This document shows, piece by piece, positions 1,910-59,676 of a stretch of 64,000 nucleotides of DNA; position 1 is the first letter of the stretch; each line of letters begins with the position of its first letter. Under the pieces are notes generated by a model. It saw nothing but the letters and a program-made list of their open reading frames with translations, had not been told where the DNA came from and ran no database searches. Location: positions 51,034 to 115,033 of the forward strand of contig JBIKLA010000004.1 in assembly GCA_044360075.1 (NCBI GenBank). Reading direction: 5' to 3'. A program made the translations under genes and the position numbers. Origin of the DNA: Bdellovibrionota bacterium. Lineage in GTDB: Bacteria > Bdellovibrionota_C > UBA2361 > OMII01.

Positions 1910-3127
1910 TTGGAAGTTGTCATGTTCTCATCGTTCAAGCCCAATTCGTCGCTAAGCTCATCTTCGGCCCATGATGGCCTCAATTCGGCCGTTCAGGGGC
2001 TCCAGGGCGCAAGCCTCCCCCGTCTTGACCGCACTGTGGAGGTGCTCTCGGACGTTAGCAGACAGGGCCGCAAGTCTCTCGATTTCGTCATTAAGGCACT
2101 AGTCACATCGCCTGAGGTGCGGAGCTCCGTGCTTGCAGCGATCAACGAGCACCCATCGCTGCTAGAGTCTCCCAAGCGGCGTGCCGCCATCCTTGAGGCA
2201 TTAACCCCCTTCTCCGACGAAGGCGCGGTTTGCGAGCTGGCAGTCGTCTCGCTTGAGAGCCCCTACCTCAAGGCCTCGGCCCGAACGGTGTCGGCGGCTT
2301 GCGCAATTCTCAAGCCCGCACTCACCTCACTGGACGAAGAGGAGCCAGCCGTCCTCTTTCCCCTTCAGCTTGAGAGGCGAATTCTTAAAGTAGCGGCCCG
2401 GTACTCTCCGGGCGGCGGTGACACAGCCGCCGGAGCGGCGATCCTCCTGCTGCGCGAAACACCGCTTGGCACCCGCATGCAGGACAGCGTCCGCTCTCTT
2501 GCCCGCGACTGGTTCCTTGCTCGAAACCAAGGCAAGAACCCATGGCTTGCGCTCCTGAGCGAGATGCCCTCCAAGGAGAATGTTGCGTTCATCGCGTCGC
2601 TCGCCAGCGGCCGCTTGCCTGGCCCCGGTCTTGCCTCATTTCTGCGCTCCCTGGTCCGAATTCCGGTGACCTTCCATGAAGTCGCTATTACCAGCACTAT
2701 CGTCACCGTGGCCTCACGCCAGATCTGCGCCTACTTCAAGCTTCCTAAGGTCGTATCGAACGCTGCTATCGCCGCCCTCTCGGTCGGGCTCGTGGTCGGA
2801 AGCAGAAGCCTCGCCAATGCGTTCCAGGAGGACGCCATCAATAAGAGCCGCACGTGGGAGCGGGTTGAAGGCATTGCCCTGCTGTCGGCGATGCGCGCAG
2901 CGCTTGGTGACGATCCCTCTAGTGCTGCGCGCTTCTCGGTGCTCAGGATAGTCTCTGCGCTGGAGAAAGCCTCTCGCAGCCGTATGCAGCCGCCCTTCGT
3001 GCGGCAAGCAGCCACGATCGCCCTCTCCGGCGAGGTGCTCGACCCGGTTGATCTGTGGAACCAAACCGTTATTGCCGGCGACTTTGGTGAAGTGCTGCGC
3101 CAGAAGCATCAAGCAGTGCGTCTGTAA
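1910..3127 (+). CDS. hypothetical alpha-helical protein (TTG start, or ATG at 1922)
   Basis: Long ORF of 405 aa with protein-like composition and no recognisable motif. Confidence 0.45.
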   Translation: MEVVMFSSFKPNSSLSSSSAHDGLNSAVQGLQGASLPRLDRTVEVLSDVSRQGRKSLDFVIKALVTSPEVRSSVLAAINEHPSLLESPKRRAAILEALTPFSDEGAVCELAVVSLESPYLKASARTVSAACAILKPALTSLDEEEPAVLFPLQLERRILKVAARYSPGGGDTAAGAAILLLRETPLGTRMQDSVRSLARDWFLARNQGKNPWLALLSEMPSKENVAFIASLASGRLPGPGLASFLRSLVRIPVTFHEVAITSTIVTVASRQICAYFKLPKVVSNAAIAALSVGLVVGSRSLANAFQEDAINKSRTWERVEGIALLSAMRAALGDDPSSAARFSVLRIVSALEKASRSRMQPPFVRQAATIALSGEVLDPVDLWNQTVIAGDFGEVLRQKHQAVRL

Positions 3128-3164: not shown

Positions 3165-3980
3165 CTACGGAGTATGCCGTCCCAATGAGGCTCTTAAGGC
3201 CTGCTGCAGAAGCAGCTGCTGCGCATAGCGCTGGGCCATCTCTCGCCGGTCGCGACTCTCATAAACCTCTTGATAGTCCTGGGTGGTAAGAGCTCCGAGA
3301 GCTGGTGCCCGAATGTCGCGCACTTGGTAGTCGAACCGCCGAAAGTCCTCCCATGGAAGGGCGATGAGGAGGTCCGCATTAAACCGCTCTGCCGTGTAGC
3401 CTTGCCTGGATGCGCACACGCCGGCCGTGCGGCAGCTCTTGTGCGGCTCAAGGCAATGCTCCCGAAGCGAGTCAGGGTCACCTGGTAGCGCCGCGCGGGG
3501 CGAATTTCGAATTCTATGATTAGAGCTCCAGCCGCCGTTCTGCGTCCGGCCGCCCATGTCGAACAGGATAATGCCCCCCGGCCCGGTTTGACGGCTCACG
3601 TCTTGAGCAAAATCCAATGCGTACCGCGAAAGCTCCATGAGGCCAAAGAGCTGAGCCTCGCTCCGCCGGCGCTGCAAGAAGGTAGCAACCGGAACCTGCG
3701 CGCTGCGTTGCTCAAGCATGCGGGAGAAATCCGCCTGGTCGACAGAGCACATCCCAAAATACACCAAGACCTCCCCCTGAATAACCGACAGAAGCTTGCC
3801 CTGATTCCACATGAAGACCTTGTGCAAAAGATCCACGCTGGTGTGTTTAAGCTCCTGGGCGGAGGGAAAGCGAAGGTCGGCGAGAGACGAAGCCCACTCG
3901 GGAATGGAACGGGCATCGTGCTTGGACTCTTCTCCTGCGGTGGGGAGGTTTTTTGACGGCTCTAATCGCGGCGCAAGCAT
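3165..3980 (-). CDS. hypothetical protein
   Basis: ORF of 271 aa. A competing + strand ORF, 3516-3956, is shorter. No motif recognised. Confidence 0.4.
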   Translation of the reverse strand: MLAPRLEPSKNLPTAGEESKHDARSIPEWASSLADLRFPSAQELKHTSVDLLHKVFMWNQGKLLSVIQGEVLVYFGMCSVDQADFSRMLEQRSAQVPVATFLQRRRSEAQLFGLMELSRYALDFAQDVSRQTGPGGIILFDMGGRTQNGGWSSNHRIRNSPRAALPGDPDSLREHCLEPHKSCRTAGVCASRQGYTAERFNADLLIALPWEDFRRFDYQVRDIRAPALGALTTQDYQEVYESRDRREMAQRYAQQLLLQQALRASLGRHTP

Positions 3981-4146
3981 GGAGGATGATCTTTAAAGCA
4001 TCGTTGTAGCCCCAATTGTAACGCTTCTAGGCGCCTTAAGCATACTTGGCGGGCGTTCTGGAAGCGACACGTATGGTCCATTCGCGACCAAAAGCGCCCG
4101 GGCAGCAACTTCCACGTACGCCCGCCGAATACCTTTCCTGAACGTC

Positions 4147-4605
4147 GTGAGCCACCCCCTTTTGACTGGAGAAACTTGCATGAGCCCCGAAACCCAAAGC
4201 AGCACCTGCGGAAATCCCAACATCTTCTCAAGCGTTTTTGCGCCAACAGTTAGAGACTACCTGCCAGAGCCAGGCTCAGTCGGCTCCTCCGTTCTTAACC
4301 ACACCACCAAGATACCCTCCTTCGTCGACACCGTCTCAAGAGACCTGTGTGACGATGGGCGCATGGGACGAGAGAGCCGCGATGCCGCTATCGGATTCAT
4401 CACGCGCTCATCGGCATCCGCCTTGGTGGCAGGCAGCACCGCGACGCTTGCATCGGTCGGTATTGCCACTGCGGGAGCGCCTGTTACAGCATTGGCCCTT
4501 GGCGCTGCTGCTCTTACTGTGGTCCCTCCGGCAGCCGAGTGGGTCGCAAACAAGGTGCGGTCTTTCTTCGGCGATCTCCTCGCTCGCTTTAAGGCTCAGG
4601 AGTAA
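4147..4605 (+). CDS. hypothetical small protein with Ala/Gly-rich hydrophobic C-terminus
   Basis: ORF of 152 aa. Internal ATG (MSPETQ) is possible. Sits convergent to the MotB-like gene. Confidence 0.3.
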   Translation: MSHPLLTGETCMSPETQSSTCGNPNIFSSVFAPTVRDYLPEPGSVGSSVLNHTTKIPSFVDTVSRDLCDDGRMGRESRDAAIGFITRSSASALVAGSTATLASVGIATAGAPVTALALGAAALTVVPPAAEWVANKVRSFFGDLLARFKAQE

Positions 4606-4619
4606 CGGGGCTTCGCTCG

Positions 4620-7097
4620 CTACTTTTGGTCGATCTTGACCTCGATACGGCGGTTTTTCGCGAGCGCCTCAGTTGAGCCGCCCGAGTCGAGCGGCTGGTA
4701 CTCGCCGTAGCCGATCGCGGCAAGGCGGTGCGGGGGAATTCCCTGCTCAGTCAGGAACTTCACCACCGAGATCGCTCGAGCTGTCGAAAGCTCCCAGTTA
4801 GAGGGGAAGGCGGCGCTGCTGATCGGAAGCTTATCGGTGTGGCCCACGACGCTCAGAATCCAGTCAACATCCTTGGGGAATACCTTCTCCATCTCCTTTA
4901 AAGTTTCGGCGAACTTCATCAGCTCTTGCTTTCCGCCGTCCTGAAGGTCCGCCGATGCTGAGGCGAAAAAGACCTCGGACGCGAAGACAAAGCGGTCGCC
5001 AACGATGCGGATGTCCGGCCGGTTGCTCAGCACCTTCTTGAGCTTGCCGAAGAACTCCGAGCGATACTCTGCTAGCTCCTCTGCCTTCTTGATGAAGGCA
5101 AGGTTGAGCTTCTTGTTAAGGTCATCGATATTCTTGTCCTTCGCGAGACCTTTTGCCTTCTCCTTGTCGATATCAGCCATGAGGAGCCGCAGCTTCGCAT
5201 TGAGCTCGTCGACTTGCTCGCCGATAGCGAGCAGCTGGGCGCTGAGCTCCGCCTTTGACTTCTCGCTGCTTGAGAGCTTTTGCTCATTCGAGAGCAGGCT
5301 CGCGTCTATGCTTTTCTTCTCAGCGAGAAGGCGCTTGTTTTCCCTCTCCCTCTCAGCCAAGAGTACACGCAACGCCGCCAGTTCAGCGGCAAGCTCAAGC
5401 TTGCTTTTTTCGGCGTCTGAGAGCTTCTTCTCCTTCGCCGAGAGGCTGTCGTCGAGCTTTTTCTTTTCTTTGTCGAGCGATCCCGCCAACGCTTCCTTAA
5501 GCGCCAGTGCAGCCCTAAGGTCAGAAAGCTGGGTTGCCAGGTCCCGATTCTCCCTCTCAAGCGAGGCAAGCCTCTTCTCGTTGGCCGATAGGCTTGAGTC
5601 GAGCTTCTTGCGCTCTGAGCTGAGTGCACTCGACTCCTTCTCCTTATCCGCCAAGAGCGAGCGCAGCGCCGCGAGCTGCTTTTCCAGATCAACGTTTTCT
5701 TTTTCGACGATCTCCAGTTTAGCCTCCTTCGTGGCCAGGATGTCAGCGAGTTTCTTCTTGTCGCTGTCGAGAGACCCTGAGAGCTTCTCTTTCTCACTAA
5801 GCGCAAGGCGCAGGGCCGCAAGCTGGGCTGCCAGCTCAATCTTGTCATTCTCAAGATCAGAAAGCTTTTTCTCTTGGGCAGACAAGCTGGCATCGAGCTT
5901 CTTTTTTTCGCCGCCAAGCGAATCCGACACCTTCTCCTTTTCCGCTAGCGCAAGACGCAGCGCTGCCAGCTGTGCCGCAAGCTCAAGCTTGTCTCTATCA
6001 AGCTCAGCGAGCCTCTTCTCCCTTGCCGATAGACTGGCGTCGAGCTTCTTATTTTCTCCCCCAAGTGACTCGGACGCCTTCGCCTTCTCTGCAAGGGCGA
6101 GGCGGAGAGTCTCAAGCTGCGTTGCGAGGTCGAGCTTCTCCTTCTCAAGCTCGGAGAGCCTCTTCTCCTTTGCCGAAAGGCTTGTGTCGAGCTTCTTCTT
6201 TTCGCCCCCAAGCGCCTCAGAGACCTTCTCCTTCTCGGCCAGCACAGCCTTGAGCGCCGCAAGCTGTGCAGCCAGCTCCAAGGTTGCCTTCTCCTTCTCA
6301 GAGAGCTTCTTTTCGCTTGTCGAGAGGCTCTCAGCCAGCTTTTTCTTGTCTGCGTCGAGGGTCTTCGAGAGCGTTTCCTTTTGCAGGAGGGACGCCCTCA
6401 AGGCGGCTAGCTCCGCCGCAAGCTCACGCTGCGCTTTCTCGTTTTCAGAGAGCTTTTTCTCCCTGGCAGCAAGCTTCTCGCCGACCGATGTCTTTTCAGA
6501 TTCAAGGTTCATCGCGAACCTGGTCTTTGTTGATAGCAGCGCGTGCACCGCTCCAAGCTCCTTATCAAGCCGCTGCCTCTCCTTCTCAAGCTCCGAGAGC
6601 TTGGCCGTGGCCTGTGAGAGATCAGTGTCGAGGCGCTTGCGCTGAGCCTCTATGTCATCCAGAGCTCGCTCTTTCGCCCTGAGGGCCGTGCGGATTGAAA
6701 CGACCTCTTCATCGTTTTTCGCCATCTGTTCGGCGTTCTTGTGCATGAGCTCCTCAAGCTCGGCACTGCGGACCCGCGCTGCGTCTGCTGAAGACTTTTC
6801 GGAAGCAAGCGAGGTTGTGAGACTGCGGGCCTGTTGCTCAAACTCAGCTCCTTTTCTGCGGGCCTCCTCTGCCCCCTCTTTCTCGAGGGTAAGTGATGCC
6901 GAGAGCTGCTCAAGCTTCTGGCTCAATTCACCAAGCAAAATATCCTTGTCGTTGACGGCGCTCGACAGGTAGAACTGCGCCGCTACCATGACGAGAAGCA
7001 CGACCGCAATCATCATGAGCATCGACGACAGTGCGTCAACGTATCCTGGCCACACGTCGAAGTGTCGCCGCTTTCCACGCCGGGCTGCGTAGCTCAT
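4620..7097 (-). CDS. MotB/OmpA-family protein with a giant internal coiled-coil repeat region
   Basis: N-terminus DVWPGYVDALSSMLMMIAVVLLVM resembles the MotB plug/TM with an Asp at the TM entry. The C-terminus ...GHTDKLPISSAAFPSNWELSTARAISVVKFL...NRRIEVKI is an OmpA/MotB peptidoglycan-binding domain. About 430 aa of 49-aa heptad-like repeats lie in between. Confidence 0.8.
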   Translation of the reverse strand: MSYAARRGKRRHFDVWPGYVDALSSMLMMIAVVLLVMVAAQFYLSSAVNDKDILLGELSQKLEQLSASLTLEKEGAEEARRKGAEFEQQARSLTTSLASEKSSADAARVRSAELEELMHKNAEQMAKNDEEVVSIRTALRAKERALDDIEAQRKRLDTDLSQATAKLSELEKERQRLDKELGAVHALLSTKTRFAMNLESEKTSVGEKLAAREKKLSENEKAQRELAAELAALRASLLQKETLSKTLDADKKKLAESLSTSEKKLSEKEKATLELAAQLAALKAVLAEKEKVSEALGGEKKKLDTSLSAKEKRLSELEKEKLDLATQLETLRLALAEKAKASESLGGENKKLDASLSAREKRLAELDRDKLELAAQLAALRLALAEKEKVSDSLGGEKKKLDASLSAQEKKLSDLENDKIELAAQLAALRLALSEKEKLSGSLDSDKKKLADILATKEAKLEIVEKENVDLEKQLAALRSLLADKEKESSALSSERKKLDSSLSANEKRLASLERENRDLATQLSDLRAALALKEALAGSLDKEKKKLDDSLSAKEKKLSDAEKSKLELAAELAALRVLLAERERENKRLLAEKKSIDASLLSNEQKLSSSEKSKAELSAQLLAIGEQVDELNAKLRLLMADIDKEKAKGLAKDKNIDDLNKKLNLAFIKKAEELAEYRSEFFGKLKKVLSNRPDIRIVGDRFVFASEVFFASASADLQDGGKQELMKFAETLKEMEKVFPKDVDWILSVVGHTDKLPISSAAFPSNWELSTARAISVVKFLTEQGIPPHRLAAIGYGEYQPLDSGGSTEALAKNRRIEVKIDQK
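5180..6590 (-). repeat. about nine tandem 147-bp (49-aa) coding repeats inside the MotB-like gene
   Basis: Repeated protein unit LSAKEKRLSELEKEKLDLATQLETLRLALAEKAKASESLGGENKKLDAS with variants. Both-strand ORF shadows (Ser-rich + frame) are typical of such repeats. Confidence 0.7.
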
Positions 7098-7098
7098 C

Positions 7099-8286
7099 TT
7101 AGTTCACCCGTGGATCGTTTTTCTGGTTATCCGCTGCAATGAGTCGGGCTATCGTCCGGAGCTCATCCCGGAGCAGAGTCGTGTTGTTGTCAGCCGAGTT
7201 AGAAAGCTGCTGGCTTATCTCCTTGAGGCTGATATCGACACTACGGACATGCTCCTCCACTCGGGAAGCATTTGAGGTCATAATAACCTCAGTCAGCTGG
7301 CTAAGGGCCGGTGTCGTCTCGTTTTGAAGCTGCGTGAGCTTAGCGAGAAGCACGTGGTGCGACCTCACGTTATCATTGAGGGCGGCAACGGTCTCTGCGA
7401 GCGAGCGCAGGTGCCCCTGCTCCGAGATCTGATTTTCGTGCTGCTGGCGCATCGTGCGCTGCAGGCGCTCAAGCTGATCGGTAAGGGTTGAGATGAGGGC
7501 CTCGTTGTAGGACCCCGATGCTGGGCCGGCCTGCGCCATAAGCCCTTCAGAGATAGCGGTCCGTCGGCCGAGCCACTCCTCCAGCTCCGCACAAAAGATG
7601 TTCTGCGCGCGGCCGGTTTGGAGGTCTAAGAAACCCAATATGAGCGAGCTTGCGAGGCCGAAGAGCGAGGCGCTAAATGATACCCCCATGCCAAGCAAAG
7701 GCTTCCTGAGCCCCTCCTTGAAGCCGTCGAACACGGTCTTGATATCCCCCTCTCCAACGGTCAGCCCGCCAATCACATTTCCGATTCCCGCTACGGTCTG
7801 GAGGAGCCCCCAGAATGTTCCAAGGAGCCCAAGAAGAATGAGGACGTTCATGAGGTAGCGGGAGAGATCGCGGCTTTCGTCGACACGTGTGAACACGCCA
7901 TCGAGCATCGCGCGCAGGGTCGTTGCCCCAAGGAAGGGCATTGAGTCGTTTTTTTGAAGCACTGACGCAATCGGCACGAGCAGGAAGGGAGGAGCTGAGG
8001 GTGGGACGTTTGCGCCCTTAAAGCTGTGTATCCACCTCACCGACCTATCGATGCGGGATATCTGCCGATATGCAGCGGCAACTCCGAAGGCCAGCGTCAC
8101 AAGAATGCCGGCATTAAAATACGGATTTGAGATGAAGGCCGCGGCGAGCCGTTCATACACCACTGCGCACACGGCCAGGAGCGAGACGGTGAAGATCGTC
8201 ATCGTGAGTCGAGCCATCGTTGGTCTGGTCATAGCGCTTTCTCGTGTGTGTGGTGGTGTCCGCCGGGCCCCATCGCCCCTTGGCAA
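7099..8286 (-). CDS. MotA-like proton-channel subunit (4 TM) with ~140-aa C-terminal helical tail
   Basis: LLGLLGTFWGLLQTVAGI motif of MotA/TolQ/ExbB and four predicted TM segments. The C-terminal tail is Q/L/E-rich coiled-coil-like. The start is probably MTRPTM (about 8232). It overlaps the MotB-like gene by one frame step (7097/7099). Confidence 0.8.
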   Translation of the reverse strand: MPRGDGARRTPPHTRESAMTRPTMARLTMTIFTVSLLAVCAVVYERLAAAFISNPYFNAGILVTLAFGVAAAYRQISRIDRSVRWIHSFKGANVPPSAPPFLLVPIASVLQKNDSMPFLGATTLRAMLDGVFTRVDESRDLSRYLMNVLILLGLLGTFWGLLQTVAGIGNVIGGLTVGEGDIKTVFDGFKEGLRKPLLGMGVSFSASLFGLASSLILGFLDLQTGRAQNIFCAELEEWLGRRTAISEGLMAQAGPASGSYNEALISTLTDQLERLQRTMRQQHENQISEQGHLRSLAETVAALNDNVRSHHVLLAKLTQLQNETTPALSQLTEVIMTSNASRVEEHVRSVDISLKEISQQLSNSADNNTTLLRDELRTIARLIAADNQKNDPRVN

Positions 8287-8435
8287 AAAATCCCGAGGGC
8301 CTGCGCCGAGGTACTCGCGTGGCGCACCCTCCCTCAGAGAGTTAAGATGCGTCCATTCACCGCGAGGATGCCTTGAGTCAACGAGGTAAAATGTAGTGAT
8401 ATAGAGCGCTTAGCGGCGGGTCGGGCTCAGGAGCC

Positions 8436-9122
8436 CTACTTGATGTAGCGCGTTGCTGGCAGGCTTGCCTCGGCAGAGAAGGTTTGGTCGGCGTCGACGA
8501 GTCCACTGCTATACCTGATGAGCACGCCCCCCGCGTAACGGACGGGTTCACCCCGGAAGAGGTCCTTTCCAACAAGAACCGAGAACGCGACGTGGCATAA
8601 CGCAAGGTCGAGTTGAGTCGGAAGCTCAAGCTTAGCACTAGCAAAATGAGAGGTGGTGCCCGCCAAGTCCCTGAATGGCTCGTCGACGCCGGGGTCGATG
8701 GCGATCTTGCGCGACCTCCCAAAGCAGTCGCCGTGGGCGCCGCCAAGGATCCACAACTTGAGCATACCCTGATTAATGGCGTGAAGGCCTTGATGATTTC
8801 TGGCTATCTGCTCCGCTTCCGATAGCACTTTGATCGGAGGCACATCCGCTGGAACAACGAGCGACACCCCACATTTCCCGGCCTTTGAAACGTTATAGGT
8901 GGCGATAAAACGGTCGCGAGGCGACAGGCGCAGCCGACATTCCTCAAAGCCTTTTATAGTTATCTCAAGCTGGTCGGACCACTCAGCTGCACCGACATGG
9001 TCCCCTCTTTGTATAGCTCCGTTGAAGCCCTCGGAGAGGCGGTCGGCAGCTTTTTGCAGCTCTCGCTGCGCGGCCCGATACTCGTCCAGTGTTAAGGCCG
9101 TGACGTGCTTTATCTCTCCCAT
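8436..9122 (-). CDS. uncharacterised protein, paralog family P (copy 2)
   Basis: Shares RDRFI...GVSLVVP...NHQG...DLALCHVAFSVLVGKDLFRG...VRYAGGV with ORFs 9127-9900, 16385-17167, 24510-25133 and 58951-59676. Confidence 0.6.
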   Translation of the reverse strand: MGEIKHVTALTLDEYRAAQRELQKAADRLSEGFNGAIQRGDHVGAAEWSDQLEITIKGFEECRLRLSPRDRFIATYNVSKAGKCGVSLVVPADVPPIKVLSEAEQIARNHQGLHAINQGMLKLWILGGAHGDCFGRSRKIAIDPGVDEPFRDLAGTTSHFASAKLELPTQLDLALCHVAFSVLVGKDLFRGEPVRYAGGVLIRYSSGLVDADQTFSAEASLPATRYIK

Positions 9123-9126
9123 AGCG

Positions 9127-9900
9127 CTAAGTCCGGGCTTCTTGCCTGTTTTTATCAGCCTCTATGGTGACCCTCGCGGCGGCCCAAAGGTTCGGGTAGT
9201 GGGCATTGTCATGATAAAAGATCTGGCCAAACCGGCCCGTATCGGTTGCCTGAAAAACACCACCCTCAGCCCTCACCGTTTGCCCCCTGAAGAGGTCCTC
9301 GCCCGTCAGTAGGAAGAATGCCGCATGTGCGATCGCCACGTCCTCGGCTAGGGCCAGGTGCTTTCCTTGGGACTCTAGGACACGCTCTTGCTTCTCGCGG
9401 GTCTTGTTCAGTGTGTCCGGCGCGAGCGCCTCTATTGATATCGTTTGGGGGGTGCTGCGCTTCCGATCAACCCAGCGGTCCGTTATCCAGCGGTTCTCAT
9501 CGGGCGGAAAGTACTTCTTTCCGGTATGGCCCTGAATCAGGGCATCAACGTGAGCCATTACCTCGATGTGAGGCCTTCCTGCGGGCAGCACCAGCGATAC
9601 GCCCGAATCGCCAAACGCCTGCACGTTGTACTTGATGACGAAGTTGTCCAGGCGCGAGAGGCCCCGCCGAAGCTTATCGAGCTCGTCGGCCCGGACCTCA
9701 AGCGAGTCGCACCACGACTGCGCCACGCGTGCATCGCCCGCATGCATCGCCTCTTGAATCTTAGGCTCCGCAGCCTCGAGCTCTCGGCACACCAGCTGTC
9801 TCGCCAGCACGTAGCTAGAGATGATGTCCATCCTGTGTATCGGGTGCTGTATCGGGTCCACAAGTCTCTCTAGGGAATGCCCGTAATGGGGCTGTGGCAT
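9127..9900 (-). CDS. uncharacterised protein, paralog family P (copy 1)
   Basis: GVSLVLPAG...YFPPDE...DVAIAHAAFFLLTGEDLFRG...VRAEGGV. It sits tandem to copy 2 and is co-directional with the MotA/MotB-like pair. Confidence 0.6.
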   Translation of the reverse strand: MPQPHYGHSLERLVDPIQHPIHRMDIISSYVLARQLVCRELEAAEPKIQEAMHAGDARVAQSWCDSLEVRADELDKLRRGLSRLDNFVIKYNVQAFGDSGVSLVLPAGRPHIEVMAHVDALIQGHTGKKYFPPDENRWITDRWVDRKRSTPQTISIEALAPDTLNKTREKQERVLESQGKHLALAEDVAIAHAAFFLLTGEDLFRGQTVRAEGGVFQATDTGRFGQIFYHDNAHYPNLWAAARVTIEADKNRQEART

Positions 9901-10016
9901 AGAATATCCAGCCCACCGAGGCTACTCAACTTTCAGCCTAAAACCGACAGGCAACACCAATGTAAGGCCCTATCGTAGGGGCGACATCAGGGGGATAACG
10001 GGGGCGTAAGCCGGCG

Positions 10017-10433
10017 CTAGTTCTTTCCGGCCAGCGCCTTGAGAGCCTCGATACGGGAAACCCGTTGCGAGAGTACCTCGTGCTCTGGCTCGAAGATGCT
10101 TAAGCGCTCCAGCTGAGCCTTAAGGAGGGCAACGTCCTCTGAGAGCGGCTTGGGATCGAGCGACCCCGGCAGGTCAACCGTGTCCGCGAGCAGCGTAAGA
10201 ACGTTGTCGCTGAAGGTCACGATGCCGCCGGATGCAATGAACTTTTGCGGGGCGGAGTCGGTGGCACCGATGTACTCACCGATCCCCGTCGAGAGGAGGC
10301 CAACGTACTCGCAGTGGTTGGGAAGAAACCCGAGCTCGCCAGTCTCAGATGGCACGCTCGCAGAGCGCACCGCAGCCTCGACCTCGAGTCCCCGTCCAGA
10401 AAACACCTTCAGCTGAAACGTTCCGTCTGACAT
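10017..10433 (-). CDS. atpC: ATP synthase F1 epsilon subunit
   Basis: Size and position after atpD. N-terminal beta-sandwich-like sequence. Confidence 0.88.
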   Translation of the reverse strand: MSDGTFQLKVFSGRGLEVEAAVRSASVPSETGELGFLPNHCEYVGLLSTGIGEYIGATDSAPQKFIASGGIVTFSDNVLTLLADTVDLPGSLDPKPLSEDVALLKAQLERLSIFEPEHEVLSQRVSRIEALKALAGKN

Positions 10434-10456
10434 CCCCTACCCTCTCTCTTAGTGAG

Positions 10457-12806
<2,350 letters not shown>

Positions 12807-24509: not shown

Positions 24510-25133
24510 CTAGCGGTAGCTGGCGGCCATGAGGGCCGGATGAGCCTGCGAGTCGTGCACGAAGAATGCCTTCTCCGTCAGGCCTGCGCAGGTTGCGATA
24601 ATCTGTCCTCCTTCTCCACGCACGGTGTGCGAGCGCAGCCGGTCACGGAACGCATCGCGCCCCTCGGTTGCCAGAAGGATAGCCGCGTGCGCACAGGCGA
24701 TATCTGCGAGATTCGCCATCTTGAGGCCGCGCTCCTTAAGGAATAAAGCCTGCTCGCCCCGAGTCATGCCACTCGAGCCCTCGACGAGGCAATCCACCGA
24801 GACGGCCGTGTCACACGCCACCGGCTTGTAAAACATCGGATCCCGCTCCCATCGCTCAACTTGATCCTGCTGGGCCACGCGGCGAAACGGATCAACGGCG
24901 CACGAGGCGACATGAGCCTGCTTGAGAAAATCGAGGCGAGACGTTCCCGCGGGAATGACAAACGATGCCTCTTTCTGGCCAAGAACTTGAACTTGATATC
25001 TCGCCAGAAGATCCGACTGCTGGGCGCGAGCTTCCTGCGTCGAAGACTTTACAACTGGAGAAGCGCCAACAGTTAAGTTTCGCTCGCGCTCACATGAAGA
25101 ATTTACTTGGCTCGACTGTGTCTCGGTTACCAT
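24510..25133 (-). CDS. uncharacterised protein, paralog family P (copy 4)
   Basis: ASFVIPAG...DIACAHAAILLATEGRDAFR...VRGEGGQI matches the family core. Confidence 0.55.
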   Translation of the reverse strand: MVTETQSSQVNSSCERERNLTVGASPVVKSSTQEARAQQSDLLARYQVQVLGQKEASFVIPAGTSRLDFLKQAHVASCAVDPFRRVAQQDQVERWERDPMFYKPVACDTAVSVDCLVEGSSGMTRGEQALFLKERGLKMANLADIACAHAAILLATEGRDAFRDRLRSHTVRGEGGQIIATCAGLTEKAFFVHDSQAHPALMAASYR

Positions 25134-39600: not shown

Positions 39601-40614
39601 ATGACCGACCTTGATATCCGAGACGCTGCCGCCCTCGACAGAGCGATGGGTGACTTCCAATCGTCGTTTGCCAAGATAGAACAAGAGGTCGCTAAGTCAA
39701 TCGTCGGCATGCACGACATAGTACGCGGAGTAGTTTCATCCGTTTGTGCTCGGGGGCACGTGCTCCTTGAGGGTGTTCCTGGCTTGGGGAAAACGCTCCT
39801 AGTGAAATCTATCGCCCAGACGCTCGGCCTCTCGTTTAAGCGCGTGCAGTTTACTCCAGACCTCATGCCCTCCGATGTAACGGGCACCCAGGTCCTTACT
39901 GATGACGCCAGCGGACAGCGGCGGTTTGTGTTCCGGCAGGGCCCCATCTTCGCCAACATCGTGCTCGCTGACGAGATCAACCGCGCCACGCCAAAAACTC
40001 AAAGCTCCCTTCTTGAGGCGATGGAGGAGCGCCAGGTGACAGTACTCGACCAGACCTATCCGCTCCCGCAGCCGTTTTTTGTCCTCGCCACGCAGAACCC
40101 CATAGAGAACGAGGGCACGTATCCCTTGCCCGAAGCGCAGCTCGATCGATTTCTCATGAAGCTCGTGGTCCCGGCACCCTCGGCCAAAGAGCTCAAGGAG
40201 ATCCTCACGCGAACTACCGGCACTTCATCGAGCGAGCTGCGTCCGGTGTTCCCACCCGACGAGGCGGGCGCATACATCGCGTCGATGCAGCGTATCGTCC
40301 GGCACGTCGTTGTGTCCGACCCGATGCACGAGGTCATCGTTCGGCTCATCTCGGCGCTCACACCCTCATCAGAGTTCGCAACGCCGAAGGTCAAGAAGTA
40401 TGCACGCTTTGGCCCAGGCCCGCGCGGGGCGCAGTCACTCGTCCTCGCCGCTAAGGTAAGCGCTCTTCTTGACCGCCGCATCAACCTCTCGTTTGAGGAC
40501 ATCAGGGGCGCCATTAAGCAGACGCTTCGCCACCGGCTAATCTTAAACTTCCAAGCTGAGGCCGACGGCGTAACCACCGATGACCTCATCGAGGAGGTTC
40601 GAAACGCAAAGTAG
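39601..40614 (+). CDS. MoxR-like AAA+ ATPase
   Basis: LLEGVPGLGKT Walker A and MoxR family features. Confidence 0.9.
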   Translation: MTDLDIRDAAALDRAMGDFQSSFAKIEQEVAKSIVGMHDIVRGVVSSVCARGHVLLEGVPGLGKTLLVKSIAQTLGLSFKRVQFTPDLMPSDVTGTQVLTDDASGQRRFVFRQGPIFANIVLADEINRATPKTQSSLLEAMEERQVTVLDQTYPLPQPFFVLATQNPIENEGTYPLPEAQLDRFLMKLVVPAPSAKELKEILTRTTGTSSSELRPVFPPDEAGAYIASMQRIVRHVVVSDPMHEVIVRLISALTPSSEFATPKVKKYARFGPGPRGAQSLVLAAKVSALLDRRINLSFEDIRGAIKQTLRHRLILNFQAEADGVTTDDLIEEVRNAK

Positions 40615-40623
40615 TCCCTGCCT

Positions 40624-41520
40624 ATGCAGCTCTCGCCTGAAACCCTCCGTCTCTTAAGCGCATTCGCGCTCCGGACGAGGCGCTCCTTCTTCGGCATCCG
40701 ACAGGGCTCGCACCGCTCTCAGCGGCGCGGGCACGGCATGGAGTTCGCAGAGTTTCGAAACTACGAGCTTGGCGACAATCCGCGCTACATCGACTGGAAC
40801 CTCTTCGCCCGCAGCGACAAGCTGCTCGTCAAGCGCTACCTTGAGGAGGAGAACGTCGCACTCTACATAGTTATCGACGGCTCTCGGTCGATGACGCATC
40901 CTTCGCTTCGAGAGAAATGGGACCTCGCCTCCCACATCGCGGCGTTCGCATCGTTCATCGGGCTCGCCAACAAGGACCCTGTCACCATCTCTGTTCTTGG
41001 CGGCCCGCACAGCCCCCGTTTCTGGAGCGGCAAGGCCTTTGGGCCCCTCACCTCATTCCTTTCCGAGGCCACGACGATGCTCGTTACGCCCGAGGCGCAG
41101 TCATTAAACCTGCCTGAGGAGGCTCGGCGCGCCGCAACGCGCGTCACCTTCCCGGGCATCTGCCTTATCCTGTCTGACTTCCTCTATCCGCTCGAACAGG
41201 TCATCTCGGTTCTCGGGGCATTTCGCGCCCGCAACATGGAAGTCCACGCCGTGCAGGTGCTCGGTAAAACAGACCAGTCTCTCGGCGGCGACCTTCGTTC
41301 AAGCGGGATTACGATTGCTGACAGCGAAACCGGCGAGGTGCGCGGCCTCTCGCTCGACACAGAGTCCCGGGCCACATACGCCGAGCTTCTCAACGAGCAC
41401 ACCGAAAAGATCCGGGAACACTGCCGCGCGCACCGCGTGCAGTTCACCTCAGTCGTTGCCGACGGGGCCCCGGCCGATGCCGGCATCAGCGCCCTCACCC
41501 AGATGGGGCTGTTCGTATGA
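40624..41520 (+). CDS. DUF58 family protein (MoxR-associated)
   Basis: DUF58 signature region ELGDNPRYIDWNLFARSDKLLVKRY. Confidence 0.85.
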   Translation: MQLSPETLRLLSAFALRTRRSFFGIRQGSHRSQRRGHGMEFAEFRNYELGDNPRYIDWNLFARSDKLLVKRYLEEENVALYIVIDGSRSMTHPSLREKWDLASHIAAFASFIGLANKDPVTISVLGGPHSPRFWSGKAFGPLTSFLSEATTMLVTPEAQSLNLPEEARRAATRVTFPGICLILSDFLYPLEQVISVLGAFRARNMEVHAVQVLGKTDQSLGGDLRSSGITIADSETGEVRGLSLDTESRATYAELLNEHTEKIREHCRAHRVQFTSVVADGAPADAGISALTQMGLFV

Positions 41521-43355
41521 CGATTTTTGGCTACGCCTTCAGCGCTCTCGCACCGTGGCTCCTTCTTGGCGCCCCTCTGGGAGCCGCTATCCTCGTGTGG
41601 GCCTACCGGTACCGGGGCACCGCGAACGAGGTGGTCATTTCAACCTTTCTCCTCGTGCGGCGGCTGCCTGAGTTGATGACCGCGCGAAAACGGTTCTCTC
41701 CTCCGCCCCAATTCTGGCTTGAGCTCGCCATCGTCGCGCTGCTATCGCTAGCCGCCGCAGGGATTTCCGCAATGCAGGCAGGCGAGAAAATCGCGATTGT
41801 CCTCGACTCCTCGCTCAGCATGCTGGCCAAGGAGCCCTCTGGCGGTACGCGCTTTGAGTCGGCTGCCCGAATAGCCAGCGCTGATGCTGCCCAGCGCGTT
41901 GCACGCTCTCGGTTCACTGTATTTACTGCCGCGGCATCACTTCAGCGCGCATCGGAGAGCGGCATCTCCGGCCCAGCGGCGGCGCTTGCGATCCGAGGCC
42001 TTAAGCCGACACTCTCGCCAGATCGCCTCGACAGCGCCATCTACTCCCTCCTCAACGATGGATCATATGACTCCGTCTGGGTGTACACCGACAAGGCCGC
42101 TCCGGAAGGGCTCATGAGTCTCGCAAAGCTCAAGGTCACGTCTATCCCCACAGACACCGGAGCGACCCGAAACGCTTGGATTCGGTCCGTGTCCTCCCTC
42201 CCCGCGGGAGCGCTCTCCGTCGACATCGGAGTGGTGGGGCCAGCTCCTGCCACTGCGCGCCTCACAGCCGACTGCTTCGACTCGAGCGGTGTCCCTGTTC
42301 GGGAGCATTCCGGCAAGACTATCCAGCTCTCTCCGGCCTCACCGACTACGGTCCAGCTTGGGCCCATTCGCGAGCCGTGGAGCTATTGCAGCGTGTCGGT
42401 GCAGGGCCTGTCTGCAGGCGAAGAGTCCTTGCTCGTCGATAACGAGGCGTGGGTCACCTCGGATTCTGCTGGCTCCACGATTCGAGTTGTGAGCCCGCTC
42501 ACTCCTGACGAGCTTGGATTACCACGCATCCAGGGATATTCCTTCGAGCGCATCTCTCCTGAGGCGTTGCCCTCCCTAAGCGCCGGCGCAGCGGTGATCT
42601 TTCATCGCACAGCTCCTCCGCCTGAGCTCACGGCATCCTCGCTCGTCGTCATGCCCCCAACAGGCCCCCTCGGGTTATCAGGCTCGGTGGGGATCGAGGC
42701 TTCCGGCACAGCGAGCGTCACGCGCTGGAGCAGCTCGCACCCTCTTCTTCAGTACCTAAACCCAACCCTGCTCTCGATCAGCCGGGTGAGGCCCCTTCGA
42801 TGTCCCGAGCTCTCGCAGCAGATCTTGTCATCCTCAGCGGGAGATCTCGTGTGTGCCGGTGAGGACCGGTCCGGGAGGCTTGTCGTCACCGGCTTTGAGA
42901 TCTTCCCCTTCGACGGGCTCTTGTCGCCGACCGTGAGCATCTTTACGCTCAATGCGCTCAAGTGGATCGCTCAAGTGCCGTCGACTGCCAGCGGCGCCGT
43001 TGGACCAGCGACGCTACCAGAGGGGGCCACCAACGTGCGCTACCTCGCCCCCAGTGCTCCACCTCCTGAGCAGCAAGGCGACTCAACCTTCGACATCTCG
43101 ACCCCGGGCATCATCGCTTTTTCGCCACAAGGAGGGCCTGAGCCGCAAATTCGAGCCTTTAACATCTTCTCGGATGAAGAATCCAACCTTTCAGACACCG
43201 AGTCGCTCTCCGTTTCTCTCGCATCGGTTGAGCCACAAGCGCGCGCTCGGGCGCCGTTCGCATGCGCCCCGTGGTTTGCGCTCATCGCCTGGCTGCTTCT
43301 GGCGATCGACATCGCACGACGAGCCATCCGCGCTTCGGCATGGGGGGCCCGATGA
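41517..43355 (+). CDS. BatA-like membrane protein with vWA domain
   Basis: N-terminal double-TM BatA-type domain, then a MIDAS motif (VLDSSLSM). Start overlaps the DUF58 stop. Confidence 0.75.
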   Translation: MTIFGYAFSALAPWLLLGAPLGAAILVWAYRYRGTANEVVISTFLLVRRLPELMTARKRFSPPPQFWLELAIVALLSLAAAGISAMQAGEKIAIVLDSSLSMLAKEPSGGTRFESAARIASADAAQRVARSRFTVFTAAASLQRASESGISGPAAALAIRGLKPTLSPDRLDSAIYSLLNDGSYDSVWVYTDKAAPEGLMSLAKLKVTSIPTDTGATRNAWIRSVSSLPAGALSVDIGVVGPAPATARLTADCFDSSGVPVREHSGKTIQLSPASPTTVQLGPIREPWSYCSVSVQGLSAGEESLLVDNEAWVTSDSAGSTIRVVSPLTPDELGLPRIQGYSFERISPEALPSLSAGAAVIFHRTAPPPELTASSLVVMPPTGPLGLSGSVGIEASGTASVTRWSSSHPLLQYLNPTLLSISRVRPLRCPELSQQILSSSAGDLVCAGEDRSGRLVVTGFEIFPFDGLLSPTVSIFTLNALKWIAQVPSTASGAVGPATLPEGATNVRYLAPSAPPPEQQGDSTFDISTPGIIAFSPQGGPEPQIRAFNIFSDEESNLSDTESLSVSLASVEPQARARAPFACAPWFALIAWLLLAIDIARRAIRASAWGAR

Positions 43356-45907
43356 GCTTTGCGATTCCCCAGCTCCTTGCCCTCATCCCGCTTTCGCTCA
43401 TCGCCTTAGTGCTCACACTGCGAACCAAGAGGAACCGTTCCGGGAAGCCGATCTTGCTGGCCCTGCTGCGGGCAGGAACTCTCTCGGCGCTTTCCTGCGC
43501 CCTTGCGCAGCCCTTCTTGTCGAGACAGCAGCCCTCGCGAAGCCTGCCGGTTCTTGTCGACATCTCCTCAAGCGTCGCGGTGGCCCAGGGAGACGCGCTG
43601 TTGCAGGGCGCTGAGTCGATTTCCTCGGCTCTTGGCGTTCCGCTGACCCTCTTCCCGTTTAGCCGCTTCGTCTCCGCCTCTGGCACCTCCGCTGGTGCCC
43701 CATTTGCTACTGTGCGGCGCGGCTCAGAGAAGCTCGATACCGGGGCGTCAGACCTGGGTGCTGCCCTCAGGGAGGCATCTTCGCTTTCCTCGCCCGTGGT
43801 GCTGCTTCTCTCGGACGGATATGAGACCACCGGCAGCGCAGTTTCTGCCCTGTCATCAGCCGGCCAGCCGAAGATTTTTCCCCTCACGGCTGCCGGCGAG
43901 TCCCCCCAGAACGCCCTTTCGATCTCCCAGCTCTACGTGCCGCTTACCGTTAAGGCGAAGAAGGCGGCAGAGGTTCGAGCGACGGTAACAAGCGGCTCCA
44001 CGGAGCCGCACGACGCCGAGCTCGTCGTCAAGCACGGAGAGGGTGTTGTGCTCTCAAAGCAGCTACGGGTCCCGCCTGGCGAAGACGTGCTCGTGACAGC
44101 ACAGACAAACCCAGCGCTTGAGGGCCTCAACATTGTCACAGCCACGCTCTCGTGGCGTGATGCCGATGGACCTCATTCGGTCACCAAAACGAGCTGGCTC
44201 AGCAGCGAACGACGCAGCCGGGTGCTACTTCTATCCGGGACGCTCGATGATGAGCGCTACCTAACCCAGATCCTCAAGAGCCAGGCGTACGAGCTAGAGG
44301 CTCGCGTGGCTCAGGGCGCGGTTGCCTCGAGCGAACCGCCGTCGCAATTTCGGGCCGTGATTCTCAACAATGTGCCGGCTTCGGCGCTTCCGCGCAGCTT
44401 CGTCGACGCTCTCCCCAAGTACGTTCGGGACGGCGGGGGCCTCATCATGGTAGGCGGCAATAGAAGCTTTGGCCTCGGCGGCTACATCGGATCCCCGATC
44501 GAGGACATCCTGCCAGTTACCCTCGTTCCGCCCCACACCGAAAAGAAGCGCCTCAATGTCGCCGTCCAGCTCGTCATCGACAAGTCCCGCAGCATGGCCG
44601 AGGACTCGCGCCTTGAGTTCGCAAAGGCTGCCGCGCGAGAAGTCGTCGACTCACTGAAGGACGACGACTTCGTCGGTGTCATCGGCTTCGAGGAGGTCGC
44701 CTTCATCGCTCTCCCCATGTCGCGCGTCGGGGATGTTCGGGGCACCGCCTCAGATCGCATCAGCCGGCTCTTTCCCACAAACCGAACCAACCTCTATCCC
44801 GCGCTTGAGGAGGGCCGACGGGGACTGTCGCGGGTAAGTGCCGGCAGGAAGCACCTCATCGTGCTCACGGATGGGCAGATCCCTGACCAGGGCCCATTTT
44901 ACTTTAACCTCATCCACCAGATGCGACTCCTGGGCATCACGGTTTCGACGGTACTTGTCGGCACAGACGCACCAGACGCATTCCTCGTGGAGATTGCGAA
45001 CCAAGGCGGGGGATCCTTCTACCAGACCAACGATCCCCGCAACCTGCCGCGCATCTTTCTCTCCGACATCAAGGTGGCCTCGGGCGAGCGCACGCTGAAA
45101 GAGGAGCCCCAGATCCCGGTCCTGCTTGGACCCGACGGTGTGCGATCGACCCGCATCGACAGCTTTCCTCCGCTGCGCGGCTTCGTCGAGACGCTCTCGC
45201 GGCGCGGTGCGGCAACAGAGCTCCTCGTTTCCGAGGAGGACAAGCGCTATCCGCTTCTTGCCTCATGGAAGGTGGGCGGGGGGCGAGCAATCGCGTTCAC
45301 TTCAGACGCCAACGGCCGGTGGTCGGCGCCGTGGCTTCGGTGGCACGGCATTGAGGAATTTTGGTCCGACCTCGTCGAATCGGCGCAACCAAGCACGCTT
45401 GAGAAGCCGCTCTCAACCCAATTCGACCTGCGCACGTGGGTAGAAGGCAGCGATCTCGTCATCGATCTCTCGCTCTTTGAGGAGCCGCGCGTCAGCTCAG
45501 TAGCCGCCACCGTCGTTCTTCCCTCCGGAGAGTCGCGAGACCTCCCGTTCTCTCCCAAGCAGAGGGGACACTACCAGGCGCGCCTCGCGGGAGCTGCGGC
45601 GGGTACCTACCGAGCAACCGTGTCGCTGGGCAGCCAGAAGCTTCCCGAGGTTGCGTGGACTCTCTCTGGCGAGCTCTTCGGAGAGCAGCAGCACCGCACC
45701 CCTAACCTTGAGCTGCTGCAGGCGATCGCCAACCGAACAGGAGGCAAGATAAACCCGACTCCTGATGACATTCGGCCGCTCATGACCCAGGTGCTTGAGA
45801 GGCGCGAGGTGGCACACCTCTTCCTCATGGCAGCCCTGCTGCTCTTTCTACTTGAGCTGCTGCTGCGCGAGGCCTCCCGCCGGGCGCTCCGGCCCGCAGG
45901 GGCGTAG
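43352..45907 (+). CDS. BatB-like membrane protein with vWA domain
   Basis: N-terminal TM (MSFAIPQLLALIPLSL...) and a vWA MIDAS motif (LVIDKSRSM...LTDG). ATGA overlap with the upstream gene. Confidence 0.75.
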   Translation: MSFAIPQLLALIPLSLIALVLTLRTKRNRSGKPILLALLRAGTLSALSCALAQPFLSRQQPSRSLPVLVDISSSVAVAQGDALLQGAESISSALGVPLTLFPFSRFVSASGTSAGAPFATVRRGSEKLDTGASDLGAALREASSLSSPVVLLLSDGYETTGSAVSALSSAGQPKIFPLTAAGESPQNALSISQLYVPLTVKAKKAAEVRATVTSGSTEPHDAELVVKHGEGVVLSKQLRVPPGEDVLVTAQTNPALEGLNIVTATLSWRDADGPHSVTKTSWLSSERRSRVLLLSGTLDDERYLTQILKSQAYELEARVAQGAVASSEPPSQFRAVILNNVPASALPRSFVDALPKYVRDGGGLIMVGGNRSFGLGGYIGSPIEDILPVTLVPPHTEKKRLNVAVQLVIDKSRSMAEDSRLEFAKAAAREVVDSLKDDDFVGVIGFEEVAFIALPMSRVGDVRGTASDRISRLFPTNRTNLYPALEEGRRGLSRVSAGRKHLIVLTDGQIPDQGPFYFNLIHQMRLLGITVSTVLVGTDAPDAFLVEIANQGGGSFYQTNDPRNLPRIFLSDIKVASGERTLKEEPQIPVLLGPDGVRSTRIDSFPPLRGFVETLSRRGAATELLVSEEDKRYPLLASWKVGGGRAIAFTSDANGRWSAPWLRWHGIEEFWSDLVESAQPSTLEKPLSTQFDLRTWVEGSDLVIDLSLFEEPRVSSVAATVVLPSGESRDLPFSPKQRGHYQARLAGAAAGTYRATVSLGSQKLPEVAWTLSGELFGEQQHRTPNLELLQAIANRTGGKINPTPDDIRPLMTQVLERREVAHLFLMAALLLFLLELLLREASRRALRPAGA

Positions 45908-58950: not shown

Positions 58951-59676
58951 CTAGCGGTTGGGCACCCGACCGGGCATCATTATACGACCGTCGTTTAGGG
59001 ATGAGTGGAAATCGAGGTCGCTCAGGCCCTGCGGCCCAAGGCTGAGTACACCCTGAGTTGTGCGAGCTCTGAAAGATTCACCCTTCGCTCGCCAGCCAAA
59101 GAGGTTGCCGCCTGTCGCAATCGCATACGCAAGGTGCGCCACGGCCACATCCCACGGCGTTGCTGGCTCATACCCCAGCTCCTCAATGGCGGCCGCCTGC
59201 TCGCGGGCGGGCTTCCCTTCCGTTCCCTCTATTCGCCCCTTGATCGTAATCGCCTCCGATTGTGGGTGCGCGTCGCTAAACTCCCGAGACTGTCTCCAGC
59301 GCTGAAGCACGGGCCCCCACACGGAGCCCCTCCCATGAGACTCTCGAACGGCCGAGTCGCCCTGCTCAAGCAGGCTCATGCGGGATACGCCCGATGGGAT
59401 AATCAGCGAGACCACTCCTTCTTGGGGAACCTCGACACTGAAGCGGGCTATTAGCCTGTCGCGAGGGGTCATCCTCTTTCGAAGCTGATCCAGCTGCTCA
59501 ACCCGCAGCGTCATTTCGTCAAAGAGATTGTTGAGGAGCCTCACGTCACCAGAGGTGGCTGCCTCGCCCATCCGCTGGGCTGCTTCAGACTCGAGCGCAG
59601 CTGCCCGCTCCAGGGTGGTCCTATATGACTCAAAGTCCTTGAGCCGCTGAGCCTCTGTGGTGGGCATCGCCGTCAT
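58951..59676 (-). CDS. uncharacterised protein, paralog family P (copy 3)
   Basis: RDRLIARFSV...GVVSLIIPSG...ESHG...DVAVAHLAYAIATGGNLFGWRAKGE. Confidence 0.55.
   Translation of the reverse strand: MTAMPTTEAQRLKDFESYRTTLERAAALESEAAQRMGEAATSGDVRLLNNLFDEMTLRVEQLDQLRKRMTPRDRLIARFSVEVPQEGVVSLIIPSGVSRMSLLEQGDSAVRESHGRGSVWGPVLQRWRQSREFSDAHPQSEAITIKGRIEGTEGKPAREQAAAIEELGYEPATPWDVAVAHLAYAIATGGNLFGWRAKGESFRARTTQGVLSLGPQGLSDLDFHSSLNDGRIMMPGRVPNR

Follow-up and report, generated by a model that had tools for sequence, protein, structure and literature searches.

Five kinds of 5:2 ion-driven motor with a known job have been described, namely flagellar stators, Ton, Tol, the gliding and type IX secretion motors, and Zorya. 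The ZorAB core of the anti-phage system Zorya (PDB 8qyd) bears a tail of ~500 amino acids (aa) that is 70 nm long, and long tails are found in all Zorya types (PMC11946911). This report concerns two adjacent genes, here called A and B, in a 64,000-nucleotide (nt) stretch of the genome of a Bdellovibrionota bacterium (assembly GCA_044360075.1, contig JBIKLA010000004.1, positions 51,034 to 115,033). The whole stretch is referred to as the window; coordinates are those of the window, and open reading frames (ORFs) were taken from an ORF listing. The products of A and B probably form a non-flagellar, peptidoglycan-anchored, ion-driven 5:2 (A5B2) motor of the PRK09039 family. The most interesting new result is the heptad quantisation of the length of the periplasmic stalk of B.

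A search of the literature on PRK09039, on alphaproteobacterial pairs of MotA-like and OmpA-like proteins and on Zorya homologues found no mechanistic study and yielded only work on Komagataeibacter. The non-flagellated Komagataeibacter hansenii has adjacent genes named motA (348 aa, four transmembrane (TM) helices) and motB (321 aa, one TM helix and an OmpA-like domain), and its MotB shares 46-48% identity, across 95-99% of its length, with proteins of Rhizobium, Rhodospirillum and Magnetospirillum (PMC6570709). Fusions to green fluorescent protein are polar, overexpression elongates the cells and increases colony spreading, disruption mutants are viable, and an altered cellulose texture is reported (PMC6570709, PMC7347698). 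These phenotypes suggest that the role is not essential and concerns the envelope, the poles or division. They were recorded in strains with overexpressed or disrupted genes and do not prove a mechanism. The A-B pair is a variant of the 5:2 motors that is new to the literature, within a family that is already catalogued and very widespread.

The A-B pair and its two subunits

Both genes lie on the minus strand and comprise the following features:

4620-7097, minus strand: gene B, 825 aa (ORF listing)
6969-7097, minus strand: N-terminus of B (aa 1-43), with a basic cytoplasmic end, the motif WPGYVD containing Asp21, and one TM helix (aa 22-43)
5067-6968, minus strand: periplasmic coiled-coil stalk of B (aa 44-677), from heptad phase, hydrophobicity spectrum and AlphaFold2
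5178-6500, minus strand: array of 49-aa repeats within the stalk of B (aa 200-640), from autocorrelation and Tandem Repeats Finder
4620-5066, minus strand: C-terminal 148-aa MotB-type, OmpA-like peptidoglycan-binding module of B, beginning at YRSEFF, from Pfam OmpA and Foldseek
7099-8235, minus strand: gene A, 378 aa, ion-channel (rotor) subunit of the ExbB/TolQ/ZorA/MotA fold, with the start aligned to homologues
7621-8235, minus strand: membrane core of A (aa 1-205), four hydrophobic helices, from hydropathy, invariant columns and AlphaFold2 helices
7099-7620, minus strand: cytoplasmic helical tail of A (aa 206-378), from invariant residues, AlphaFold2 and periodicity

A preliminary description of this DNA had proposed that both members of a MotA/MotB-like pair carry helical extensions, which is borne out, and both ORFs are present as described. 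The longest ORF for A runs from 7099 to 8286 and encodes 395 aa. In an alignment with 54 homologues, all of them begin at the sequence MTRPT, which places the real start of A at 8235 and gives a protein of 378 aa. The stop of A is separated from the start of B by 1 nt in the window and by 0-1 nt on the contigs of relatives that were inspected.

The subunit A is a divergent member of the ExbB/TolQ/ZorA/MotA fold with a conserved helical cytoplasmic tail. Its third TM helix bears the invariant LLGLLGTFWGLL and its fourth the invariant GMGxSFSASLFGL, as seen in homologue alignments, and the segment between the second and third helices measures only ~65 aa by hydropathy and in the AlphaFold2 model. 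The top Foldseek matches of this model are solely A subunits of 5:2 motors (ExbB, TolQ, MotA, PomA and ZorA), ExbB and TolQ being closer than MotA; A thus shares the membrane-core fold of the MotA/ExbB/TolQ/ZorA superfamily. PADLOC models of ZorA (1.7e-8) point to the same fold. No Pfam or NCBIfam model reaches its threshold on A, while sub-threshold matches to MotA_ExbB occur in 52 of 55 members of the A family. The tail, of ~170 aa, consists of a continuation of the fourth TM helix followed by a helix of 80 residues (aa 241-320) with a heptad periodicity of 3.5 residues and a helix of 49 residues (aa 324-372) with a periodicity of 3.6-3.67. Invariant charged residues (E327, H329, R331, R356 and E358) are found near its tip. 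The alignments with homologues span 93-95% of the length of A, tail included, and this length varies only from 366 to 400 aa across the family.

The subunit B begins with a basic cytoplasmic stretch, after which comes its only TM helix; a conserved Asp lies close to where this helix meets the cytoplasm, as in the other B subunits of the superfamily. In a 32-sequence alignment, W16, P17, G18, V20, D21 and A22 are nearly invariant, and the pattern W-x-x-x-x-D was found in 134 of the 135 other B homologues scanned. We take Asp21 to correspond to the ion-binding Asp of MotB, ExbD, TolR and ZorB. At the other end of the protein, the Pfam OmpA domain was found at aa 710-816 (E 3.7e-16). The C-terminal module keeps the motif GHTD...NWELSxxRA, and its peptidoglycan-contact residues D755 and R774 are invariant. 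Its best Foldseek matches are the periplasmic domains of MotS (E 7.6e-10), PomB and MotB. The module has 148 aa (145-150) in all but five homologues, of which four are extended at the C-terminus and one is truncated by the end of its contig. The B proteins of the Falsiroseomonas/Roseomonas type (P0165-P0171, 860-929 aa) have ~370 residues after YRSEFF, compared with 148 elsewhere; this additional C-terminal region of ~220 aa, beyond the OmpA domain, has no Pfam match.

The preliminary description had also held that the pair matches none of the known ion-driven systems exactly. This view had to be given up, as B scores 372.7 bits, in two stretches, against the NCBIfam equivalog NF006543 (PRK09039.1-2, "peptidoglycan-binding protein"), the cut-off of which is 305, and the pair is kept in hundreds of genomes. 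The architecture of the NF006543 family is found in B in full: a TM helix with Asp, a coiled coil and a 148-aa OmpA-type module, encoded by a gene that directly follows a MotA/TolQ/ExbB-like gene.

A continuous coiled-coil stalk in B, with a length that changes by heptads

Between the TM helix and the wall-binding module, B is predicted to be helical throughout. The best heptad phase remains unchanged from aa 41 to aa 647, a hydrophobicity spectrum computed over aa 45-690 shows a single narrow peak, at 3.5 residues (187, compared with less than 5 elsewhere), and AlphaFold2 models aa 17-690 as helix. The stalk is periplasmic, since the N-terminus follows the positive-inside rule and the C-terminal domain binds the wall. 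Autocorrelation of B gives its top peak at a lag of 49 residues (41% identity), and 49 residues are exactly seven heptads. Nine to ten such units occupy approximately aa 200-640, and Tandem Repeats Finder reports the corresponding period of 147 nt. The units are only 47-74% identical at the DNA level, and a B protein of exactly 825 aa and 85% identity is encoded in two independent metagenome assemblies. These observations exclude an assembly artefact.

The distance between the TM Asp and YRSEFF was measured in 135 B homologues. It ranges from 174 to 657 residues, and the B protein of the window, with 657, is the longest of those examined. Divided by seven, the distance leaves a remainder of 6 in 96 proteins, 3 in 25, 2 in 11 and 0 in three; remainders of 1, 4 and 5 never occur. 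The bias persists when each of the 54 distinct distances is counted once (2, 0, 8, 13, 0, 0 and 31 for remainders 0 to 6; chi-square 101, p 1.3e-19). Offsets of -3/+4 and +3/-4 residues are known as stutters and stammers, discontinuities that coiled coils tolerate. Flexible loops or hairpins would erase such a rule. In every member, the stalk therefore behaves as a single uninterrupted coiled coil, the length of which evolves in heptad steps. By analogy with the parallel TM pair of B2 in solved 5:2 motors, the two stalks of a B dimer would run in parallel. The fold-backs that AlphaFold2 introduces into the stalk were rejected, being low-confidence breaks that do not coincide with repeat boundaries and are contradicted by the modulo-seven rule.

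Coiled coils rise by ~0.148 nm per residue, so that the ~645 aa of the stalk would extend over ~95 nm. The earlier expectation of a helical and periplasmic repeat coil is borne out. The dimensions given with it, 430 aa and 60 nm, cover the clear repeats and not the whole stalk. In the basal form of B, which has 342 aa, the stalk comprises ~163 residues (about 150 aa) and measures ~24 nm, approximately the width of a typical periplasm. A stalk at or far beyond this width probably lies at an angle to the membrane or within the periplasmic plane, as a leash or torsion element and not a perpendicular strut.

The variation in length is best seen among close relatives, i.e. contigs encoding an A protein 72-93% identical to that of the window. 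Because the repeats skewed the homologue search made with the whole of B, the nearest orthologues escaped it and were recovered via the contigs that encode A homologues. On L091 and L092, B has 825 aa, is 85% identical to B of the window and has colinear repeats. It has 762 aa on L094, 664 aa on L083 and L093, and 342 aa on L081 and L085. The repeat units of the window cannot be paired one by one with those of the 664-aa and 762-aa forms. The B protein of L094 (7160-9448) carries, relative to that of L083, a recent tandem duplication of 98 aa, i.e. two 49-aa units, the duplicate units being ~75-85% identical to their L083 counterparts. The non-matching units and the L094 duplication imply that expansion of the stalk is recurrent, and it appears to be ongoing. 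The long coil is not a character of the family; it is a lineage-specific expansion of the stalk of ~150 aa seen in the basal 342-aa form. The 49-aa repeat expansion is the lineage-specific extreme of a freely evolvable stalk length. A stalk that varies fourfold between close relatives provides a natural length series for testing the effect of stalk length on a wall-anchored motor.

The proposed motor

The assembly of A5B2, the flow of protons and the rotation proposed here are modelled on the solved structures of MotAB, ZorAB, ExbBD and TolQR (PMC9389320, PMC11946911). Protons would pass between Asp21 of B and the invariant Gly-Thr of LLGLLGTFWGLL in the third TM helix of A. The stalk would hold the B dimer on the cell wall, and the A pentamer would turn around B. 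The short, conserved, ZorA-like helical tail that A carries into the cytoplasm would then act on a partner there. The role of such a motor is likely a housekeeping one in the envelope, at the poles or in division, and neither motility nor phage defence.

Several points weigh against this proposal. The Pfam model PF01618 (MotA_ExbB) scores only 15.8 bits on A, compared with a gathering score of 22.9, and no solved structure was matched significantly when a sequence profile of the A family was used as query. The AlphaFold2 models of A and B are monomers of moderate confidence (predicted local distance difference test scores of 69-70). A torsionally soft stalk of 95 nm is a poor torque anchor. 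On two contigs with an A protein ~50% identical to that of the window, L088 (2170-5970) and L089 (2303-6087), the pair is divergent from fliK-flgD-flgE, with a DUF456 gene between them. A conserved gene for a cytoplasmic partner was not found at the loci compared, and the proposed output of the motor is conjecture. Finally, motA and motB of K. hansenii probably belong to the same family, a likeness drawn from reported sizes, topology and identities only. From its length, K. hansenii B would have an Asp-to-motif distance of ~153, again 6 modulo seven, if its flanks match those of the family, and its stalk would be short.

A more speculative extension, which we regard as rather unlikely, is that the family is an unrecognised trans-envelope force transducer in which B unites the roles of TolR, TolA and Pal. 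The ion-coupled axle (TolR), the long periplasmic rod (TolA) and the wall anchor (Pal) could all reside in this one polypeptide. The A ring could be immobilised by its tail, for instance at the poles, and proton flow could twist the wall-anchored coil of B. A stalk loaded in this way could serve as a torsion spring or winch, pulling on the wall or sensing it, or it could be a leash limiting the travel of the motor. If so, the heptad-quantised stalk, 24 to 95 nm long and expandable by 49-aa cassettes, would be an evolvable tuning parameter.

The same stalk could be read without any ion-driven movement. B would then passively tether the inner membrane to the wall, or serve as a scaffold in the periplasm, and A would be a mere partner for its assembly or stabilisation. 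The stalk far exceeds what a torque anchor needs, and its fourfold variation between close relatives would trouble a scaffold or leash less than a motor; matches to crescentin-type rods, weak and of coiled-coil type, point in the same direction. However, the residues that form the proton path in solved 5:2 motors are kept, namely the near-invariant Asp21 in the TM helix of B and the invariant LLGLLGTFWGLL and SFSASLFGL of A, and the conserved 170-aa cytoplasmic tail of A would be needless in a tether. A passive tether is accordingly an unlikely explanation, and an ion-driven motor is preferred.

Genomic context and comparison with known systems

The A-B unit is widely distributed. A has more than 2400 homologous clusters, and a full hidden Markov model search of 1.84 billion representatives returned 579 clusters (at 50% identity) with E <= 1e-30. 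A-B loci were found in at least 597 species-representative genomes, mostly of Rhodospirillales and other Alphaproteobacteria (Nitrospirillum, Elioraea, Roseospira, Marivibrio), Sinorhizobium meliloti included. The closest A proteins among species representatives, with 46% identity, are from metagenome-assembled genomes labelled Bdellovibrionota, Deltaproteobacteria or Pseudomonadota. In 77 of 80 distant loci, B comes directly after A. In Alphaproteobacteria, the pair stands in a housekeeping context with the order tkt-gap-fba-thiE-efp-suhB-A-B, and in S. meliloti, where A has 368 aa and B 342 aa, it lies between suhB and an ATP-binding cassette transporter gene.

In 60 alphaproteobacterial loci (L014:6825-7853, L034:6873-7895, L009:1795-2793 and 57 more), the gene directly before A, in the same orientation, encodes a protein of ~340 aa. 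This protein combines a signal peptide with a Pro/Ala-rich linker and a C-terminal OmpA domain, and is absent from the lineage of the window and from S. meliloti. This suggests that the secreted OmpA-domain protein, A and B constitute a three-gene module in many Alphaproteobacteria.

Matches of A in the plasmid collection searched are confined to Sinorhizobium and Shinella replicons of 3.5-4.6 Mb; true plasmids lack the pair. One of these replicons (L087, PLSDB CP090106.1), of 3.7 Mb and from S. meliloti, is labelled "plasmid pSymB" and carries the chromosomal housekeeping genes rpmE, purE, thiE and suhB. It looks like a mislabelled chromosome, which would account for the "plasmid" matches of A.

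In the window, the pair is flanked by three genes:

4147-4605, plus strand: small gene convergent with B, 152 aa, C-terminal half Gly/Ala-rich and hydrophobic (neighbour comparison)
8436-9122, minus strand: P1, 228 aa, family P, a neighbour outside the conserved module
9127-9900, minus strand: P2, 257 aa, family P, 4 nt upstream of P1, likewise outside the conserved module

In all close relatives, the small convergent gene is conserved (52-59% identity) as the next gene after B, but it is not conserved beyond the lineage; its product has no Pfam or PHROG match. It was considered as a partner of the motor and rejected, being conserved within the lineage only; the genes at the same position on L088 and L089 are unrelated to it. 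The ORFs further downstream, 1910-3127 and 3165-3980, have no match in the profile libraries scanned (Pfam, NCBIfam, PADLOC and PHROGs).

P1 and P2 are paralogues with 30% identity. Family P proteins have 207-257 aa and the motif D..VAHAA...TG.DLF.G..VR. Pfam, NCBIfam, PADLOC, PHROG and PDB contain nothing that matches them, and 5.8 billion clusters yielded three relatives only. Close relatives differ in the number and position of the P genes. Two further paralogues are encoded in the window far from the motor genes, at 24510-25133 and 58951-59676, both on the minus strand. According to the ORF listing, B, A, P1 and P2 run co-directionally on the minus strand, and the ATP synthase operon begins directly upstream of P2, from 10017 onward. 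The preliminary description correctly had the tandem P genes upstream of A and in its orientation; its gap of 150 base pairs between P1 and A becomes 200 nt once the start of A is corrected.

These four genes had been proposed to form an operon. On this reading, the family-P proteins would serve as cytoplasmic effectors or partners of the motor. In addition to the shared orientation and the 4 nt between P2 and P1, the order atpC-P-P-A-B recurs on L091, a 93%-identical relative, and the same interval of L081 contains three P genes and a GT87 glycosyltransferase gene. However, the content of the atpC-A interval differs in each relative. That of L083 contains a partial P gene and an oppositely oriented gene, and those of L085, L093 and L094 contain genes unrelated to family P; on both L083 and L093, the gene before A is on the other strand. 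None of the 80 distant loci contains family P, paralogues of which also occur apart from the motor genes, and its few database relatives and the 200-nt gap before A also argue against a functional link. The operon is thus quite improbable and the proposal was abandoned: the atpC-A interval is a variable island beside a stable A-B unit, and the family-P genes are confined to the lineage of the window.

A promoter and terminator scan of 4000-10500 gave no usable signal in the intergenic gaps, and the many "terminators" fall inside repeat-rich coding sequence. When the 245 nt before A were aligned across four relatives, no conserved promoter element emerged. Scans of the entire window (1-64000) for tRNAs and against Rfam at the gathering threshold were both empty. 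The window is part of the core chromosome and contains gyrB, parAB, prfB, phoH, uvrD and the atp operon. The genes gyrB, parA and parB and the atp operon, which all lie within these 64 kb, are commonly origin-proximal. At 39601-45907 on the plus strand, a cluster encodes a MoxR-type AAA ATPase (AAA_3), a DUF58 protein, a 612-aa protein without Pfam match and a VWA-domain protein; it resembles an operon of the Bat/aerotolerance type and is unrelated to the A-B pair.

The ZorAB-type motors invite the assumption that the pair is an anti-phage sensor that detects envelope damage and signals via the tail of A to effectors encoded elsewhere. PADLOC models of ZorA match A (1.7e-8) over only part of profiles that are 683-1063 positions long, and ZorB3 matches B (7e-24) through the OmpA region only. 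The tail of A has ~170 aa, compared with ~500 aa in ZorAB and with tails of ~70 nm in all Zorya types (PMC11946911), and the long element is on the periplasmic B side here, whereas it is on the cytoplasmic A side in ZorAB. None of six proteins scanned (A, B, P1, P2 and the products of ORFs 3165-3980 and 1910-3127) matched the PADLOC models of ZorC, ZorD, ZorE, ZorF or ZorG, in agreement with the initial impression that no ZorC-, ZorD- or ZorE-like neighbour is present, and no conserved effector gene was found in 90 related loci. The pair shows housekeeping synteny across hundreds of Alphaproteobacteria instead of residing in defence islands, is apparently inherited vertically, is absent from true plasmids and has no match to a PHROG family. 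A Zorya-like sensor is therefore very unlikely.

An ordinary or auxiliary flagellar stator of the MotAB, MotCD or PomAB type is suggested by databases that name some homologues "flagellar motor protein MotA" or "chemotaxis protein MotB", by the fold of the C-terminal domain of B and by the gene order on L088 and L089, but is hardly credible, because NCBIfam MotA models do not match A, the MotB, MotS and MotD equivalogs score only 57-107 bits on B against cut-offs of 250-312, A is structurally nearer to ExbB and TolQ, no flagellar gene is present in the window or in the alphaproteobacterial synteny, the S. meliloti pair is outside the flagellar regulon, and the probable Komagataeibacter homologues occur in a non-flagellated genus. 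This agrees with the preliminary description, which did not take the pair for an ordinary flagellar stator. The pair shares with MotAB, PomAB and MotPS the four TM helices of A and, in B, the TM Asp and the MotB-type peptidoglycan-binding domain. It differs from these stators in that the ~65-aa segment of A takes the place of the large FliG-contacting torque domain of MotA in the cytoplasm, and a coiled coil of 150-645 aa, which starts straight after the TM helix of B, replaces the plug and linker. Homologous genes should be annotated neither as flagellar MotA/MotB nor as Zorya.

The systems TolQR-TolA-Pal and ExbBD-TonB are alike in the fold of A, which is nearest to ExbB and TolQ, and in its TM3 motif, which is LGLLGT-W-G-like. 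The likeness to Tol-Pal is also conceptual: B combines a TolR-like TM Asp, a TolA-like periplasmic helical span and a Pal-like OmpA domain. In contrast to TolQR and ExbBD, B is a single polypeptide with an OmpA-type domain and not the ExbD/TolR fold, and A apparently has four hydrophobic helices rather than three. No gene for a TolA, TonB, TolB or Pal partner adjoins A-B at the loci examined.

In common with other members of the PRK09039 family, the pair of the window has its genes in the order A-B, a B protein with the TM-Asp motif and a C-terminal module of 148 aa, and a full-length, tailed A. It differs in its Asp-to-YRSEFF distance of 657 residues, compared with a basal 174, in building its stalk from 49-aa repeats and in lacking the secreted OmpA-domain protein upstream. 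Besides the five motor kinds with a known job, the A-B pair would represent a further 5:2 branch, present in hundreds of Alphaproteobacteria, tractable models included, and in Bdellovibrionota-like lineages.

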